27,706 bases of DNA, taken from positions 1 through 27,706 of the forward strand of contig JAGNOY010000002.1 of assembly GCA_017989935.1 (NCBI GenBank), read 5' to 3'. Below the pieces are notes generated by a model. That model was not told where the DNA came from. It did no database searches and was given only the letters and a program-made list of their open reading frames with translations. The position numbers and the translations under genes were made by a program. Origin of the DNA: Chitinophagaceae bacterium (GTDB lineage Bacteria; Bacteroidota; Bacteroidia; Chitinophagales; Chitinophagaceae). The number at the start of each line of letters is the position of its first letter. Position 1 is the stretch's first letter. Below are positions 371 through 7,918 of this stretch, piece after piece.

Positions 371-3300
371 TTAATTCTTCTTAACCTTGCTCACACTTAC
401 TAACTTATCATTTTCATAAATTTGAACGAAGTATAAACCAGAAGCGATTTCATCTAAATTCACTTCAAAGTGATTCGCACCTTGAACTGATTTTAATTGT
501 ACTTGCTTCAAAGTTCTTCCACTCATATCTACAATATTGATATTAGTGTTTTGTGCCTTCGCGGCAAACAAATCAATTTGCAAATTGTGTTGAATTGGAT
601 TAGGATATAAAGTCACAACAGTGCCATTTGAACTCCACATTAAGTCAATCACCTGACTATTTAATGAAGCTTTTCCATCAAGATCTACTTGCTCTAATCT
701 ATAATAGTTGTGACCCGCTGCAGGACTAGTATGATTGAAAGTATAATCTAATACCTGCTGACTTAATCCATTCACTGATTTTGAGTTGATTCGACCAATT
801 GTCGTAAATTGATTTCCATCAGTGCTATATTGAAGATTGAAATAAGCGCAATTTTGTTCGCTTGAAGTAGTCCAATCTAAAATATTACTTGAAGCTGATT
901 TTTTACCTTCAAAATTGGTGATTACAGCAGGCAAAGGCACATTATTAGGATTCTCTGCATGGAAATGGAATTGACTCAAACTAGTTACAGAAACATTTAT
1001 TTCCCAATAACTTGTCGCAGCATTCCAAACTACATTATTTGGTGTAATAACTACCGGATTAATTCCTAAACCAGCATTATCATTTTTAGTTACACGTAAT
1101 CGAGCAATACCTGCAGCATCACTTGGACCAGTTGGAAGTAAAGGCCAACCATTTGAAGTTGCGTACACATTGTAGGTATCAAAATCTGCTTGAGTTAAAT
1201 AAAAGATGATTCCAGTACCTGTGTTTGTAGTAGGTTCAATTTGAAACCATCTTTCCAAGTAAGGTTGTCCATTGTGCGTATTAACGTTATTATCAACATT
1301 CACTGTAACAGTAGTCAAGCCAAGTGCAGCAGTACTATTAATGCTAGCAATTAAATTACAGCTACCAGAGTAATAACTAATAAAGCTATTAGCAATTTGA
1401 TCATCTGTATCAGAATTTAATCCAGCAACAGAAGATGTATTGCCCGAAGTTGCATTACTTAGATCAGGACTTGCTGCATTTACGCCAACCAACACAGAAG
1501 CTATACCAGTACAAGTGTTAGCATCTGTTCCGGTAACAGTATAAAAATTATTGGCAGTCACTACTTTAGGCAAACCATCGGTTACTCCATTATCCCATGT
1601 ATAACTTGCTCCAATACCTGCACCACCTCCAGTGAATATCACTGTTGTATTTTCACAGGTACTTGATAAACTAGCACTAGCAGTCACTGTTGGGATTGGA
1701 TTTATATTGATGGTGATTGAAGTTGTATTTGAACAAGTATTTGCATCTGTTCCTGTTACAGTATATGTTTCTGTTGGACCAGCACTCAACATCGTGAAAG
1801 GTGTTGCATCAACTACTGAACCACTCCATACATATCCACCACCTAATCCAGCACCACCACCAGTTAAGGTAAGTTGTGCATTTTGGCAAACTGTTGCTGA
1901 TGAAGGTGTTGCAGTAATTAAAGGTAAGTCATTTACATTAACTACCGCTGTTGCAGTGTTTGAACAAGTATTCGCATCAGTACCAGTCACAGTGTATGTT
2001 GTTTGACCAAGCACAACTGTTGTGAAAGGAGTATTGTCTGTAATACCACCACTCCAAGTATAAGAACCTGGTAATCCACCGCCACCTGCTAAGGTCGCAT
2101 CTTTACCAATACAAGCTTCACTCATTGATGGTGTTGCAGTAATAATTGGCAAATCATTGACAGTTACCACTACGGTAGCTGTATTACTACAAGTAGTGTT
2201 TAAATCCGTTCCTGTTACTGTATATGTAGTTGGCCCAAGAATAGTTGCTGTGAAAGGCGTATTATCTGTTATTCCACCACTCCATACATAAGAAGCATTA
2301 CTTCCTGCACCATCACCAGCCAAAGTAACTTGACTATTTATGCAAGCTGAAGCAGCACTAGGTGTTGAAGTTACTGCAGGCAATGCATTTGCAGTTACAG
2401 TAACTGGTGTCCTAACTAAATTTACACAACCTGAGGTAGTTACAGTAAATTCAGCATAATATAAGTTAGCACCCGAAGTAGTTGGAGTTACATTAATAGG
2501 AGGTGCTCCTAAATTAGTTCCTCCAGATGGCAAAGTCCAATAGGTAACTGTACCTGTTTCTTGTCCAGGAGGCGCAGAGAAATTGGATACTGTTAATGTA
2601 GCTGGCTGAGAATCATCTTGAGTAAATGCCTCTAACGATATCACATCACCTGCTACTACAGGTATGGAGATTGTTCCACTTTGTGTGCCTGCACCAGCCC
2701 CTTGATTATAAGAAGGGAAGACTGTAACAGTTGCATTCTTTTTATATCTTGGTTGGTGAAAAACACCTACATCAGGATGGGTGAATGTCCAATTGAATGT
2801 AACAGTTCCACTACCTGTACATGTAAGGGTTCTTGTAAGACTTGTAACGCTATTATTTCCAAGGTTCGCAGTACTAGTTGTTAATTGAATGTTTGCAGGC
2901 GCTCCAGCAAAATTATTACTTCCACCGTTTCCTGCAAAAGTCCAAGAAGCAGGTGCATAAAACCCAGTGAATCCAGAAATATTGGAAGGTGGACAAATTG
3001 AAGCTACTGCAGCATCTAATTGAGCTGTTCCGCCAAGACAAAAAGCAGCAGGAGTGGCACTTACTGTACCTGTCATTACAGGATTCACAACAACCACTGC
3101 TGTTGCTGTGTTTGTGCATGTTCCATCAGAACCAGTAACAGTATAAGTTGTAGAAGTTGTTGCCGGAAAAGGTGTGGCATCAGGTACACTTGGGCTCCAA
3201 GTAAATGAAGTAGCTGTACCTCCACCTGTAAGAGTTACCGGATATCCTTCACAAACAGTTGTATTTAAAGGTGTTGCAGTTACTGTAGGAGGAGTAACAA

Positions 3301-6300
3301 CAGTTGCTGTAACTGCGGTTCTTCCACTGTAACAACCATTGGTTCCCTTTTCTGAGACATAAAATGTAGTTGTTGTTGTAATTGGTGTCAAGTAAGTAGT
3401 ATATCCAGGAGCTGATGATTCAGTTTGAATAACTACATTATCAACGGTAGTTCCGCTTGAAATGCCTCCAGATCTACTCTTGATAATATGTTTCCAAGTA
3501 GCGCGATTAGCGGATAAATAACCAGCAGGTAATTGCACATTATTAAAAATAGTCGTAGCACCTAATTTCAAAGTTGCTTTACCGAAATCATCAATAATCA
3601 ACGTAATATGATTTGTAGTACCTCTCCATGTTAAATTATTAGAATAAGCCAATACACCTGAGGTAACTGAAGTTTGTTCATTTGTTGTACAGTTATACAT
3701 TAAATAAATTCCTTCCAAACCTGCTCCATACTCAACAAAAGCAACTTTCAACTTAGTACCAGTGCCATTTTCAGCATTCATTCCAGCTTCAGCCGTTGAA
3801 ACACCATCATCACTAAAGCTATAACTCAATCCATCTGCCATATTGGTTGGCGTTCCAATGGTAGTCAAATCAAAATCAACTTGATAACGACTTGAATTTA
3901 TTCCACTAGCATTCACAGTAAAAGCGCCATATTGACTTACTGCATTTGGGTGTAGTTTAAGATCACCACCAGAAATAGTTGCATTTCCTGTGATTGATGA
4001 ATTTGTCAATGTTGCAGAACTAAAATCATTGCTGTAATAAGTTTGCATAGTAGGCCCTTGTAATAAGTTACCTGCTGATGCTGCACTATACCAATAATAT
4101 TGACCGCTACCTACCCCGGTTGTTGCAACAGAAACTGTTGGAATTCCAGGTCCGCATTGTGAAGTACTGATTGAACTTGGTGGGGTAATTGTATATGCCT
4201 GAACAGATACTTCTGCACTTGTTATAGAGCAAGGTCCACAATTTGAGCATGTTCTTTCAAGTACATAATAATAAGTTCCGTTAGTTAAAGCAGGAGTTGT
4301 ATAAACTGGTGTAGTTTCACCTGAACCGCCAACCACATTGGTATAAGGACCTCCTGAAACAGTTGAAGATTTCCACTGATAAGTAATACCAGTGATATTA
4401 AAATCATATCCTATCAATGATAAAGTAGAAGTAGTTCCTTCACAAACTGATGTAGGCGAGGCAGAAACTGTTCCTAAATTATTTGCACTTGAACAAATAA
4501 ATAATGAGATTGCATTTAAGGCATCAGCCCCCATATCAGTAGGTGTTAAACCTGAACGTAATTGTCCATCAATATCATCAGTGATTAAAGCAATCGGCGT
4601 TCCGGTTGATTCAATTGGAGAAGCGGGCACAGCATTGATATGCAAATCCACTGTTGATGCGTCACCAGTTGGGTTCATGTAATTCGGATCGTAGTTTTTA
4701 CTATTTCCATCACCAGCAATCCAATTTAATGTATATCCAGCTACGTCTGCCGCCAAATTCAAAGCAAAGACAGTGCCTGCTCCAGTTCCAAAATAATTAT
4801 TATAATTTAAATTAATGCCTGAATTATTAATCAATTGAAGTTGATAGTGCTTTCCACCGGTGGTTGCATTAGCTCGATTATTTACAAAAATATTATTTCT
4901 AATATCGTCATTACCAGTGCTTGTTTTAATAAACGCACCTGAATTTTTTACAGTTGTTCCTACCCCTGTTCCACCGATATACAAACTATTAAAGTAAAAA
5001 TTATTTACAAGCGTGCTTGTTTTGTTAATTCCTCGAATAACCAAAGCTGTTGAAATACTATTTCCTGCGCCATCAATTCCTAAGCGAATCATGTTATTCG
5101 CATAAGTTGCAGACCCGGCAAGTATTTCTATTCCATTGATAAATGCATTGGTATTAACTGCTGTTACACCTAAACTGTGAATAATATTTTTAGTAATTAA
5201 GTTATTTGTGATCGCAGAACTTGGTGTACCATTAAAAGTAATACCTGTTACTTGAAGTGCTAAAGTTGTTGATGTATTGGTTAAGCCTAAATTATAAATA
5301 CTATTTCCATTGATTGTGTAAGTTCCCGAAGAACCTGAAGTTCCAAGCGCAATGCCTATCAATGCTGCGGAAGCTCCTGTACTTCCATTTCCTGATGCAG
5401 TGGTGATATCTCTGATTATATTATTTGAGATATTGAATGCATTCGTGCCAGCTGAAAAAGTACCTATCATAGAAATTCCACGTGCCGTATTATTACCAGT
5501 AATCGCATCATTATTGCATTGCATATTTGCTATAGTGTTACCAGTAATATTTGTTGTTCCAAAAGCGCCTGTTACACTTAATAAGATACCATTGAAACGA
5601 GAAGTTCCACCACTAGTACTACCAGTAGTAGCATAAAAAATACTTTTTGGTGTATTTGCACTTCCTATCGTATTGTTGGTAATATTGATATTCCCGTTAT
5701 TCACAGCAATGGCACTAAAATCAACATTTGAAGTTACTGATCCAACTAATCGTATACCTGCAATGATATTATTCGTCACATTCAATGTTCCGCTGGAAGC
5801 AAATAATGGAATAAATCCTCCGGCACTTACTCCTGTATTTGTAAATGTGATTGCAGGGCTAACCGAAGCATCAGTATTAGCTACACCGATTAGGTTAGAG
5901 GTTGTTGTACCGATATCAACTGTACCTGCCGAAACAAACAAGCAAGAAAATGCTGCTGCAGACAAACTAGCACTTGTCATAGACATATTGGTAAATGTAT
6001 TACCTTGAACTTGTGTTGTTGTGCCTGTTCCAACTGCAATTACTGCTGAATTATATAAATGAGTCGTTGTTCCAGTCAAGGTATAAACTCCAGTTCCTGC
6101 ACTGCTATTTCCACCAAAAAAATTATTATTCACTGTGAATCCACTTCCAGAAGTATTTCCAGTAGGATTGTTGATATGCAAATCTCTGTTGGTTGCAGTC
6201 CCTGTAATAGTTCTAGCAAGAGTTTGATAAAATTTATTATTGCTAATAGTTGAAGCGTTTGTACCGGTACCAAAATATACCCCTGTATAACCTAAAGTTG

Positions 6301-7918
6301 CACTGAAATAATCGTAGATATCACAATTTGTAATACTTATATTATCGTTATTCAATGTAGCAGAACCAGTAGAGCCATTAATATTAAAGGCCACAGTCGG
6401 ATTCGCACCTGCTGCATTATGCACATTGCAATAACTAAAAGTATTATTATCGTTTCCAGTTATTCCAGTGGTTCCTCCGATATTTACGATACCAGCTCCT
6501 GCTGCTCCTGCGATACCAGCATTATTCGAAGTTAATTCGCAATAAGTAATTGTATTGTTTGTGGCATCGTTTGCCATCGTAACAGCAGGGGCACTTATGG
6601 TAGTATTTGAAATCAATAATTGACCAGTTGAACCGATTCCTCCAGGTCTACCATCTATTAATACATTAGAACCTCCGTTGAAATCTAACGTTGGAGTAGC
6701 TGCATTGTTCACGATACTTAAATTTGTGGCACTTAATTCAGGTCGGATTGTAATTGTTTTTACAGATGTTACACAAGCATTTGTAGGAAAAGTTATAGGG
6801 AATGTTTCTACTGTGCTTGCATAGGCTGCTTGTAATTCAAGTACAATTGGCCCGCCTAATCCATTATTCGAAATATCGGTCATTGCACTAGTCAAAGACG
6901 CATATGTTCCTGTTGGACCTACAGTAAAAGTACCCGTTAAAGCTGAGCAAGAATTAGTAGTAGCACTGCCGGTCAAAGGCGTTGTGGTATTATACTTCGG
7001 ACCACCTGCACATGATGTATTATTGTAGGTATACACATAATAATCGTATGTAGTCCCTCCAGTCAATCCAGTATTATTAAAAGAAGTACCCGTTCCATTG
7101 TAAACAACTGTTCCTAAGCCTAAACTTGCACCTGCTGTATAAGCAGTTGCATCTACTGGATTTGTTGTAGCTGCTAAATTTGGATATCTAACTACTAAGT
7201 AACCTGATGGTGTGCTTGCTGCTGCCGTATAAGAAACATTGATTTGAGAAGAAGACACAGGCGTTAGATTTAATGCAGTGGCTTGGTCTGCCGGCGTTGC
7301 ACAACTAACTGGCGGTATGACATCAATCCCGAAATCAGGCCATGAGGTGACAGTAGTTCCTAGTGTGGCTGCAAGCGTGGTTGCTGTAATACGTTTATTG
7401 TTGGGCGCTGCACCTGTGGTAGTTGTAAATACGGTAAATCCGCCAGCACTTTTAGAGGCGAATGAAATTTCAACTATAAGTCTTTGTGCAGGATCATATA
7501 AAAAATATGGCGAAGGTATATCTACATAAAACCAACCACCTGTTCCTCCTGAACCTGCAACTGCATTTGTGGTTAAGGTAACTGTTGGGGCAGAATATAC
7601 ATTAGTCAAGCCAGTGAAAAACAAAGTTCCAGAACTTGCAAAGCCTGTAGCACTTGTTTGACCTAAATTAATATTAAAATTTGTAAATGTAGCTGTTGAA
7701 GAAACAGCACTACTTCTGAAGTAAACTCTTGTGATATAACCTGCAGTGGCGCTTCCTAATTCTGCCGCAGTATACAAAGACTGCGATTTTAACACAGTTG
7801 TGCTATTAAATGGAATACCATTACTCGTTGTACCTCCACCTTTCAAGAATTGGGGTGTTTGCGCGTGGGCAAAAAAGGTAGCAAGTAAGAAAAAAAGGAA
7901 TAGTTTAAGTTTATTCAT
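371..7918 (-). CDS. 2515-aa T9SS-secreted multidomain surface/adhesin-like protein: signal peptide, N-terminal beta-sandwich, FN3, long right-handed beta-helix, Ig-like stalk with inserted L-type lectin and a second beta-sandwich, PLP-FN3-like domain, type A CTD
   Basis: Sec signal ending AHA-Q; FN3 motif (GLTGGTTYDYYVYTYN); Asn/Gly/Ile-rich beta-helix repeats ending in PTDMGAD; Cys-paired Ig repeats; CTD with LYPNP, IVDMSGR and SGLYFVQI ending KVKKN. Confidence 0.93.
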   Translation of the reverse strand: MNKLKLFLFFLLATFFAHAQTPQFLKGGGTTSNGIPFNSTTVLKSQSLYTAAELGSATAGYITRVYFRSSAVSSTATFTNFNINLGQTSATGFASSGTLFFTGLTNVYSAPTVTLTTNAVAGSGGTGGWFYVDIPSPYFLYDPAQRLIVEISFASKSAGGFTVFTTTTGAAPNNKRITATTLAATLGTTVTSWPDFGIDVIPPVSCATPADQATALNLTPVSSSQINVSYTAAASTPSGYLVVRYPNLAATTNPVDATAYTAGASLGLGTVVYNGTGTSFNNTGLTGGTTYDYYVYTYNNTSCAGGPKYNTTTPLTGSATTNSCSALTGTFTVGPTGTYASLTSAMTDISNNGLGGPIVLELQAAYASTVETFPITFPTNACVTSVKTITIRPELSATNLSIVNNAATPTLDFNGGSNVLIDGRPGGIGSTGQLLISNTTISAPAVTMANDATNNTITYCELTSNNAGIAGAAGAGIVNIGGTTGITGNDNNTFSYCNVHNAAGANPTVAFNINGSTGSATLNNDNISITNCDIYDYFSATLGYTGVYFGTGTNASTISNNKFYQTLARTITGTATNRDLHINNPTGNTSGSGFTVNNNFFGGNSSAGTGVYTLTGTTTHLYNSAVIAVGTGTTTQVQGNTFTNMSMTSASLSAAAFSCLFVSAGTVDIGTTTSNLIGVANTDASVSPAITFTNTGVSAGGFIPLFASSGTLNVTNNIIAGIRLVGSVTSNVDFSAIAVNNGNINITNNTIGSANTPKSIFYATTGSTSGGTSRFNGILLSVTGAFGTTNITGNTIANMQCNNDAITGNNTARGISMIGTFSAGTNAFNISNNIIRDITTASGNGSTGASAALIGIALGTSGSSGTYTINGNSIYNLGLTNTSTTLALQVTGITFNGTPSSAITNNLITKNIIHSLGVTAVNTNAFINGIEILAGSATYANNMIRLGIDGAGNSISTALVIRGINKTSTLVNNFYFNSLYIGGTGVGTTVKNSGAFIKTSTGNDDIRNNIFVNNRANATTGGKHYQLQLINNSGINLNYNNYFGTGAGTVFALNLAADVAGYTLNWIAGDGNSKNYDPNYMNPTGDASTVDLHINAVPASPIESTGTPIALITDDIDGQLRSGLTPTDMGADALNAISLFICSSANNLGTVSASPTSVCEGTTSTLSLIGYDFNITGITYQWKSSTVSGGPYTNVVGGSGETTPVYTTPALTNGTYYYVLERTCSNCGPCSITSAEVSVQAYTITPPSSISTSQCGPGIPTVSVATTGVGSGQYYWYSAASAGNLLQGPTMQTYYSNDFSSATLTNSSITGNATISGGDLKLHPNAVSQYGAFTVNASGINSSRYQVDFDLTTIGTPTNMADGLSYSFSDDGVSTAEAGMNAENGTGTKLKVAFVEYGAGLEGIYLMYNCTTNEQTSVTSGVLAYSNNLTWRGTTNHITLIIDDFGKATLKLGATTIFNNVQLPAGYLSANRATWKHIIKSRSGGISSGTTVDNVVIQTESSAPGYTTYLTPITTTTTFYVSEKGTNGCYSGRTAVTATVVTPPTVTATPLNTTVCEGYPVTLTGGGTATSFTWSPSVPDATPFPATTSTTYTVTGSDGTCTNTATAVVVVNPVMTGTVSATPAAFCLGGTAQLDAAVASICPPSNISGFTGFYAPASWTFAGNGGSNNFAGAPANIQLTTSTANLGNNSVTSLTRTLTCTGSGTVTFNWTFTHPDVGVFHQPRYKKNATVTVFPSYNQGAGAGTQSGTISIPVVAGDVISLEAFTQDDSQPATLTVSNFSAPPGQETGTVTYWTLPSGGTNLGAPPINVTPTTSGANLYYAEFTVTTSGCVNLVRTPVTVTANALPAVTSTPSAASACINSQVTLAGDGAGSNASYVWSGGITDNTPFTATILGPTTYTVTGTDLNTTCSNTATVVVTVNDLPIITATPSMSEACIGKDATLAGGGGLPGSYTWSGGITDNTPFTTVVLGQTTYTVTGTDANTCSNTATAVVNVNDLPLITATPSSATVCQNAQLTLTGGGAGLGGGYVWSGSVVDATPFTMLSAGPTETYTVTGTDANTCSNTTSITININPIPTVTASASLSSTCENTTVIFTGGGAGIGASYTWDNGVTDGLPKVVTANNFYTVTGTDANTCTGIASVLVGVNAASPDLSNATSGNTSSVAGLNSDTDDQIANSFISYYSGSCNLIASINSTAALGLTTVTVNVDNNVNTHNGQPYLERWFQIEPTTNTGTGIIFYLTQADFDTYNVYATSNGWPLLPTGPSDAAGIARLRVTKNDNAGLGINPVVITPNNVVWNAATSYWEINVSVTSLSQFHFHAENPNNVPLPAVITNFEGKKSASSNILDWTTSSEQNCAYFNLQYSTDGNQFTTIGRINSKSVNGLSQQVLDYTFNHTSPAAGHNYYRLEQVDLDGKASLNSQVIDLMWSSNGTVVTLYPNPIQHNLQIDLFAAKAQNTNINIVDMSGRTLKQVQLKSVQGANHFEVNLDEIASGLYFVQIYENDKLVSVSKVKKN
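1478..2377 (-). repeat. Four tandem ~75-aa Ig-like repeats (a fifth copy lies at ~3080-3286)
   Basis: Recurring T(A/S)TP..C....TL.G.G....Y.W.G...D.TPF......YTVTGTD.NTC.NT....VN.LP; DNA similarity also visible (acaagt..t.gcatc.gt.cc.gt.acagt). Confidence 0.85.

Follow-up and report, generated by a model that had tools for sequence, protein, structure and literature searches.

A predicted L-type lectin domain nested within a split Ig_7 domain of a giant type IX secretion system protein from a Chitinophagaceae bacterium

Introduction

Giant type IX secretion system (T9SS) cargo proteins are abundant in environmental Bacteroidota and almost wholly uncharacterised, and spotting the ligand-binding ones among their dozens of beta-sandwiches is a first step to grasping how these bacteria attach to particles, algae and prey. 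One such protein, of 2515 amino acids (aa), is encoded on the minus strand of a 27,706-nucleotide stretch of DNA (positions 1 to 27,706 of contig JAGNOY010000002.1, assembly GCA_017989935.1; hereafter the window) from a freshwater-type Bacteroidota bacterium of the family Chitinophagaceae. Within its array of immunoglobulin (Ig)-like domains lies a segment with features of legume lectins, and the question that this locus raises is whether that segment is simply one more domain in the row or is nested inside one of its neighbours. An original prediction, made from the letters of the window, favoured nesting: an Ig-like domain of a giant T9SS protein would be interrupted by an L-type lectin domain and then resume, with the sugar-binding Asp of an Ala-Asp-Gly (ADG) motif kept and the metal-binding loop altered, and the whole would be an unusual adhesin design. 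The motifs and coordinates given with that prediction are all present, to within a base or two, the minus strand having gone unmentioned. Here we examine the nesting in sequence and in structure models, follow it through homologs, and weigh what the nested domain may do.

Two halves of one Ig_7 domain flank the insert

The coordinates of all features are collected in Table 1. The lectin-like segment is bordered on each side by a stretch that resembles part of Ig_7 (PF19081, CHU_C associated), a Pfam profile of 84 positions. Upstream, residues 1249-1289 match profile positions 7-47 with 18.1 bits, a half that runs from CGPGIPT at residue 1255 (window 4156) to NLLQGP ending at 1289 (window 4052). 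Downstream, residues 1507-1540 match positions 47-82 with 27.7 bits, above the cut-off of 27.3, and this half extends from YTTYLTPITT at 1506 to RTAVTATV at 1540 (window 3403-3299). Scanned separately, the two halves abut exactly in the profile and together cover the whole of it in order. The intact domain that directly precedes them matches profile positions 6-82 with 27.2 bits, just below the cut-off.

When the insert was removed in silico, the resulting 80-residue spliced sequence could be aligned over its full length to 135 contiguous Ig_7 repeats of ~70 aa that occur naturally in other proteins. Against a hidden Markov model (HMM) built from these repeats, the spliced halves gave an ungapped match to positions 3-76 that scored 87.0 bits; the N-terminal half alone scored 45.1 bits and the C-terminal half alone 41.0, the spliced score being their sum. 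Moreover, the conserved Cys of the N-terminal half (1255) is kept in 34/35 nested homologs and the NGC motif of the C-terminal half, which contains Cys1529, in all of them. At the level of sequence these data support the flanks being two halves of one Ig_7 domain, with a match far beyond chance.

A structure model contains a complete lectin fold between the halves

An AlphaFold2 model of residues 1245-1545 was built from an input alignment of 78 homologs. The nested unit of 300 aa proved well behaved and is confidently modelled, with a predicted local distance difference test (pLDDT) score of 94.1, a predicted template modelling (pTM) score of 0.87 and all residues at 70 or above. The insert takes the ConA-like fold that the original prediction had proposed. 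The top match by VIA-align was the carbohydrate recognition domain (CRD) of ERGIC-53 (Z 23.6, root-mean-square deviation (rmsd) 2.1 Å over 196 residues), the whole of which was covered by model residues 46-256, and the same domain was the top match by Foldseek (E 1.7e-10). VIA-align also returned VIP36, Emp47p (Z 21) and some thirty legume lectins at Z 20-21, with pea lectin residues 1-234 at Z 21.4. These alignments span model residues 44/47 to 256/261 and entire lectin chains, and therefore the lectin domain is complete inside the insert.

Outside the lectin fold ~85 residues are left, the size of one Ig_7 domain. These Ig flanks are modelled at pLDDT 86-95 (87-93 in the N-terminal half), and in the model the long strands C (1270-1277) and F (1517-1525) find no long partner elsewhere. 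Since a two-strand C-terminal half would hardly be modelled at such values unless it were packed against the N-terminal half, we strongly infer from the model that both halves pack into one beta-sandwich. A fold search against clusters of the AlphaFold Database matched the lectin part alone (TM-score by query ≤0.57) and returned no counterpart of the whole nested unit; a fold search of the Atlas was likewise uninformative on nesting.

The insert belongs to the L-type lectins but has a degenerate metal loop

The insert carries the motifs GDLKLHPN at residue 1318, ADGLSYSF at 1361, KLKVAFVEY at 1389 and VDNVVI at 1492. A HMMER scan of 1.84 billion representatives retrieved 157 relatives. Among the 78 aligned homologs, 21 match PF18483 (Lectin_L-type_dom; best E 6.9e-7) and 9 match PF03388 (Lectin_leg-like). 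A profile of the same 78 homologs, searched against the PDB, found ERGIC-53 (E 4.8e-5) and also VIP36, Emp47p and legume lectins; a phmmer search with the insert alone against PDB sequences gave no match. The sequence support for lectin identity from Pfam is thus transitive, coming through the homologs and the family profile, while the copy in the window stays below threshold. Language-model features gave 0.95 to L-type lectin clusters, and Pfam scans of the protein and its homologs matched no glycoside hydrolase family. Taken together, the model and these searches support the insert being a complete L-type lectin fold.

Binding-site positions were read from the alignment of the family profile to ERGIC-53. 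Asp1362 of the ADG loop falls on the sugar-binding Asp121 and is kept in 72/78 family members, and the Gly that follows it is invariant. G1385 and G1387, the GxG before the F-D strand, are invariant or nearly so, and G1484-G1485 align with G251-G252 of ERGIC-53 (the GG loop). The metal loop is a different matter: where the family consensus reads F-D-A-Y-G-N-N and ERGIC-53 F-D152-S-F154-D-N156-D, the window protein has Val1395 at the position of the Ca2+ ligand Asp152 and Ala1399 at that of Asn156, a ligand of both Ca2+ and sugar. The equivalent of Asp181 could not be aligned with confidence. The full set of Asp, Asp and Asn is retained in 2/35 of the Ig_7-nested homologs as against 20/43 of the other family members; P0030 and P0024 are examples of nested homologs with F-D-x-Y-x-N. 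Both remarks of the original prediction on the site, a kept ADG Asp and an altered metal loop, are thereby borne out. Owing to Val1395 and Ala1399, canonical Ca-dependent binding by this copy is unlikely. Emp47p is a metal-independent L-type lectin and, by analogy with it, any binding here would probably be metal-independent or proceed via a modified site. As judged from the sequence, a glycan-binding (lectin) function of the insert is plausible.

The nested unit is inherited as a module

The whole 301-aa unit recurs full-length in ~35 cluster representatives, with E values of 1e-47 to 1e-155 and identities of 40-81%, and both junctions are identical across them. Their host proteins are between 400 and 4400 aa long. 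Two relatives hold two Ig_7::lectin units each, P0002 at residues 2332-2635 and 3255-3553 and P0029 at 119-406 and 1337-1633; in the genome of the window the module is single-copy. In a tree the two copies within P0002, and likewise those within P0029, are mutual closest relatives (99*), and because the paired copies group together this indicates that the whole nested module was duplicated within the gene in both proteins. These homologs show the Ig_7::lectin unit to be an inherited module, one that is often succeeded by a second split Ig with a CBM-like bud (CBM, carbohydrate-binding module). A single-protein query found 5 related loci, all in Chitinophagaceae or metagenome-assembled genomes (MAGs) of Bacteroidota and some from lake samples. 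Inside the bacterium's own family the distribution is patchy: of 150 genera sampled, 5 had any match and 3 the nested form. Look-ups of clusters for product names returned nothing informative, one being a 'hypothetical protein'.

Nesting extends beyond the Ig_7 host. Ig_7 halves flank 37 of 111 complete lectin domains, and in a tree of the 111 these Ig_7-nested domains lie in one part (a 56-row group, Shimodaira-Hasegawa-like approximate likelihood ratio test (SH-aLRT) 90). Many lectins that were first scored as not nested prove to be nested in other hosts. In the clade of P0044, P0073, P0057, P0050, P0067 and P0109 the lectin is nested in He_PIG (PF05345), after NHL repeats; here the upstream flank ends at profile position ~67 of 96, and the spliced flanks match contiguous domains that score 49.8 and 51.7 bits against PF05345. 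The host in a further clade (P0103, P0113, P0114, P0121 and P0119) is a divergent Ig_7-like domain. It seems from these alignments that the lectin family is habitually a 'bud' domain and that nesting is its usual state.

In P0031, P0035, P0072, P0085 and P0052 the lectin flanks share a pattern of their own, C....GSI.V.N..G on one side and ...WQ.S..F.GL..G.YDV....C on the other. By eye it resembles an interrupted SprB-type repeat; a Pfam scan and the flank-splice test both came back empty.

A second nested module lies downstream

One ordinary Ig domain (residues 1545-1611) separates the Ig_7::lectin unit from a second nested module, which begins ~70 residues downstream and in which an Ig domain is interrupted by a sandwich resembling a carbohydrate-binding module (CBM). 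An AlphaFold2 model of residues 1612-1848, from six homologs, reached pLDDT 85.7. In an exhaustive VIA search, beta-sandwich and CBM chains fell on model residues 33-174 at Z 8-10.8 (the Elapor1 and VesC C-terminal domains, CBM51), whereas single Ig/PKD domains of ~85 aa aligned across model residues 1-237, the neck of GhpA (9flp_A) at Z 9.9. As a contiguous 86-residue Ig domain matches residues 1-237, the first 32 and the last 63 residues of the model must together make up a single sandwich that encloses the insert. The split Ig of this second module is thus seen directly in three dimensions in the predicted structure. Moreover, six homologs hold both modules at equal spacing, from which it follows that the pair of buds moves as one cassette.

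A proposed lateral lectin bud and its alternatives

We consider it probable that Ig_7 acts here as a split domain carrying a complete L-type lectin as a bud, a putative glycan-binding head displayed laterally. The chain would leave the Ig fold after its fourth strand (C'), build the 216-aa lectin beta-sandwich, and then come back to complete the Ig fold with its last three strands. Two neighbouring connections in the C'-E loop hold the lectin, and further Ig domains of the array flank its host on either side. The bud would then be a ligand-binding, most likely glycan-binding, head placed laterally to the fibre at mid-protein, as in the split-domain regions of RTX adhesins. The count of strands ahead of the insert is even in each module (four in the first, two in the second), and both buds would therefore exit at the N-terminal pole of their Ig hosts. 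This pole would be the cell-distal one if the protein is anchored C-terminally; in P. gingivalis, type A T9SS cargo is anchored via its C-terminus. Since the fibre axis is filled by the neighbouring Ig domains, we infer that the buds stand off-axis.

Several observations weigh against this architecture, or against parts of it. How the Ig halves of this module pack, and how its lectin is angled against the fibre axis, is deduced from confidence values, secondary structure and sequence. The insert of the window protein scores 13.5 bits against PF18483 (E 0.067), short of the cut-off of 78.3. The Ca/sugar site lacks its canonical Asp and Asn, so that carbohydrate binding is not assured. Lastly, the genes around (an epimerase, pheS, DUF502 and a TolC/HlyD/ABC operon) are housekeeping, and show no functional link to the protein and no hint of a ligand.

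Were the domains instead sequential and independent, the chain would form a full Ig domain, then the lectin, and leave a fragment of Ig over. This reading draws on a contiguous Ig HMM match that runs on from the N-terminal half for ~30 residues into the insert (HMM 3-63, residues 1252-1316). We rejected that match as a low-complexity over-extension: together with the next 40 insert residues the N-terminal half reaches 48.6 bits, a gain of 3.5 over the half by itself, and the residues gained are the first lectin strands, model residue 46 onward corresponding to residue 1 of legume lectins. Moreover, the downstream piece (profile 47-82) amounts to two or three strands that could not fold alone, yet it is modelled with high confidence. 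The sequential arrangement is largely refuted by these data, and we regard it as very improbable. It is also very improbable that the insert is an enzyme with a ConA-like fold, or some further non-lectin of that superfamily (a GH16-type glucanase or LamG domain, for instance). The ConA-like fold is common to many families, and the weak Pfam match of the window protein itself would allow such an identity, but all top profile and structure matches are L-type lectins (Z 20-23.6), the L-type motifs (ADG, the GxG that precedes the F-D-x-Y strand, T/S-G-G) line up and are conserved, and glycoside hydrolase families went unmatched in the Pfam scans.

The main rival to a modified, metal-independent site accepts the nesting and holds that the lectin fold has lost sugar binding, to become a protein-binding, spacer or self-association module. 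Arcelin and the alpha-amylase inhibitor are lectin-fold proteins that have lost their metal loops, and Val1395 and Ala1399, in place of the Ca-binding Asp and the Ca/sugar-contacting Asn, would fit a similar history. The scarcity of the full Asp/Asp/Asn set in the nested clade also suggests a relaxed or changed constraint there. However, the ADG Asp and the GxG and GG loops are strongly kept, which would be unexpected for a mere spacer, and metal-independent L-type lectins do exist, Emp47p among them being a structural match to the insert. We therefore hold a loss of sugar binding to be rather unlikely, and retain the lateral lectin bud with a modified site as the preferred reading.

Comparison with known adhesins and lectins

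The closest parallel is found in RTX adhesins secreted by the type I secretion system (T1SS). MpIBP, FrhA of V. cholerae and AhLap of A. hydrophila contain split Ig-like domains with budding ligand-binding domains (PMC12077191, PMC10865825, PMC5550230). Off-axis projection of ligand-binding domains from Ig-like split domains is a described hallmark of these adhesins, and adjacent N and C termini are typical of their buds (PMC12077191, PMC10865825). As in RTX adhesins, a complete domain interrupts an Ig-like host in the window protein and the rest of that host follows after it, and split units stand in series with ordinary Ig domains between them, two extenders apart in AhLap and one Ig domain apart here. 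The buds of these RTX adhesins are sugar-binding beta-sandwiches. There are differences as well. The window protein has a T9SS type A C-terminal domain in place of T1SS export and an N-terminal retention domain, and its anchoring polarity differs. Its host is Ig_7 (He_PIG in relatives) rather than a bacterial Ig-like (BIg-like) extender, and its bud an L-type lectin rather than PA14, CBM or vWFA. The modules occupy the middle of the protein (residues 1250-1850 of 2515) and not a ligand-binding region at the distal end, and the phylum is Bacteroidota rather than Proteobacteria. With no RTX family match and no RTX repeats, it is an analogue and not a member of that family.

Among lectins, the insert resembles ERGIC-53, VIP36 and Emp47p (PF03388) and the legume lectins (PF00139/PF18483) in its fold, at Z 20-23.6 and rmsd ~2.1-3 Å over ~196-200 residues. 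The ADG Asp, the GG loop and the Gly that precedes the F-D strand are kept. Sequence identity to ERGIC-53-type and legume lectins is ~12-16%, and unlike them it lacks the equivalents of Asp152 and Asn156. Moreover, here the domain is embedded in another domain of a bacterial surface protein, whereas that of ERGIC-53 is N-terminal and carried by a coiled-coil stalk, and plant lectins occur as free oligomers.

L-type lectin modules also occur in tandem arrangement in the binding region of S. aureus SraP and in Lactobacillus lectin-like proteins. As in those adhesins, the long surface fibre here would bear a legume-lectin-like module as its binding head (for a review of serine-rich repeat proteins see PMC6973325). 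Their lectin, however, is sequential and distal and does not lie inside an Ig domain, and their secretion and anchoring are Gram-positive. A further comparison is with the grappling-hook protein GhpA of Aureispira (T9SS, PDB 9flp), likewise a giant Ig-like surface fibre of Bacteroidota. Among solved structures, its neck Ig matches the split Ig of the second module best (19% identity), although the GhpA domain is contiguous.

In light of these comparisons the arrangement cannot be called an unusual adhesin design, as the original prediction had it: split-domain buds are established for RTX adhesins (PMC12077191, PMC10865825) and nesting is common within the lectin family itself. The novelty lies in the setting, a T9SS cargo protein whose host domain is Ig_7 and whose bud is an L-type lectin; the design was already known. 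The literature searched yielded no paper that joins 'split domain' with T9SS, which is no proof of novelty. A wider proposal, which we offer tentatively and lean slightly against, is that T9SS fibres independently reached an RTX-like split-sandwich bud design, that the lectin is a habitual bud in at least two unrelated hosts (Ig_7 and He_PIG), and that the Ig_7 clade lost the Ca2+/Asn site, implying a new metal-independent binding mode. If this were so, a domain emerging from a split Ig might be used as a general guide to where the ligand-binding heads lie in the many uncharacterised T9SS megaproteins. The locus itself shows the split-domain rule of RTX adhesins to hold for T9SS fibres too, and in the window protein it pinpoints two candidate heads, the lectin (1290-1505) and the CBM-like sandwich (~1645-1785). 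The advance is one of domain architecture, of ordinary size, and brings no new principle.

Gene, protein and genome setting

Table 1. Features of the giant surface protein gene in the window, in order of window position.
Feature	Window position	Strand	Protein residues and remarks
Gene of giant secreted surface protein (P0001)	371..7918	-	2515 aa; 7.5-kb open reading frame (ORF); from the ORF list and translation
T9SS type A C-terminal sorting domain	383..610	-	2437-2512
Second nested module	2375..3085	-	1612-1848; Ig interrupted after strand B by a CBM-like beta-sandwich of ~140 aa (predicted)
C-terminal half of split Ig_7	3296..3403	-	1506-1541; strands E, F, G; Cys1529
Inserted L-type (legume / ERGIC-53-like) lectin domain, complete (predicted)	3404..4051	-	1290-1505; 216 aa
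Degenerate metal/Asn loop F-V-E-Y-G-A-G	3719..3739	-	1394-1400
Asp1362 codon, A-D-G loop	3833..3835	-	Equivalent to sugar-binding Asp121 of ERGIC-53 (GADGL)
N-terminal half of split Ig_7	4052..4174	-	1249-1289; strands A, B, C, C' in the model; Cys1255
Intact contiguous Ig_7-type domain	4199..4468	-	~1151-1240; directly before the split domain

The sorting domain matches PF18962 with 49.8 bits (E 4.4e-13, cut-off 27) and TIGR04183 with 39.4 bits (cut-off 23), in agreement with the giant T9SS protein that had been predicted. The genome of origin (G000) is a 2.5-Mb MAG of 71% completeness and 3.6% contamination, and contains 3 full-length GldM-family genes above the cut-off of TIGR03517 (C134:1130-2725, C196:6004-7632 and C272:1039-2613). 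Because the sorting domain exceeds both curated cut-offs and GldM genes are present in the same MAG, assignment of the 2515-aa protein as T9SS cargo with a type A C-terminal domain is supported by annotation. Three GldM genes in one MAG suggest either multiple paralogs of the T9SS / gliding motor or mixed bins. A search of this genome for SprA (TIGR04189) gave no match; control genomes were equally without one, and the result is hence uninformative.

The N-terminus, read by eye, resembles a Sec signal peptide (MNKLKLFLFFLLATFFAHA followed by Q). An array of approximately eleven Ig-like domains lies between the sorting domain and an N-terminal region of ~1100 residues, which consists of a fn3-like piece and an Asn/Gly/Thr-rich repetitive part. 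The latter, at residues ~340-1130 (window ~4520-6900, minus strand), is a long stretch with recurring N-N-x-I and I-x-N motifs. A Pfam scan of this repetitive region returned no match; it looks like a right-handed beta-helix.

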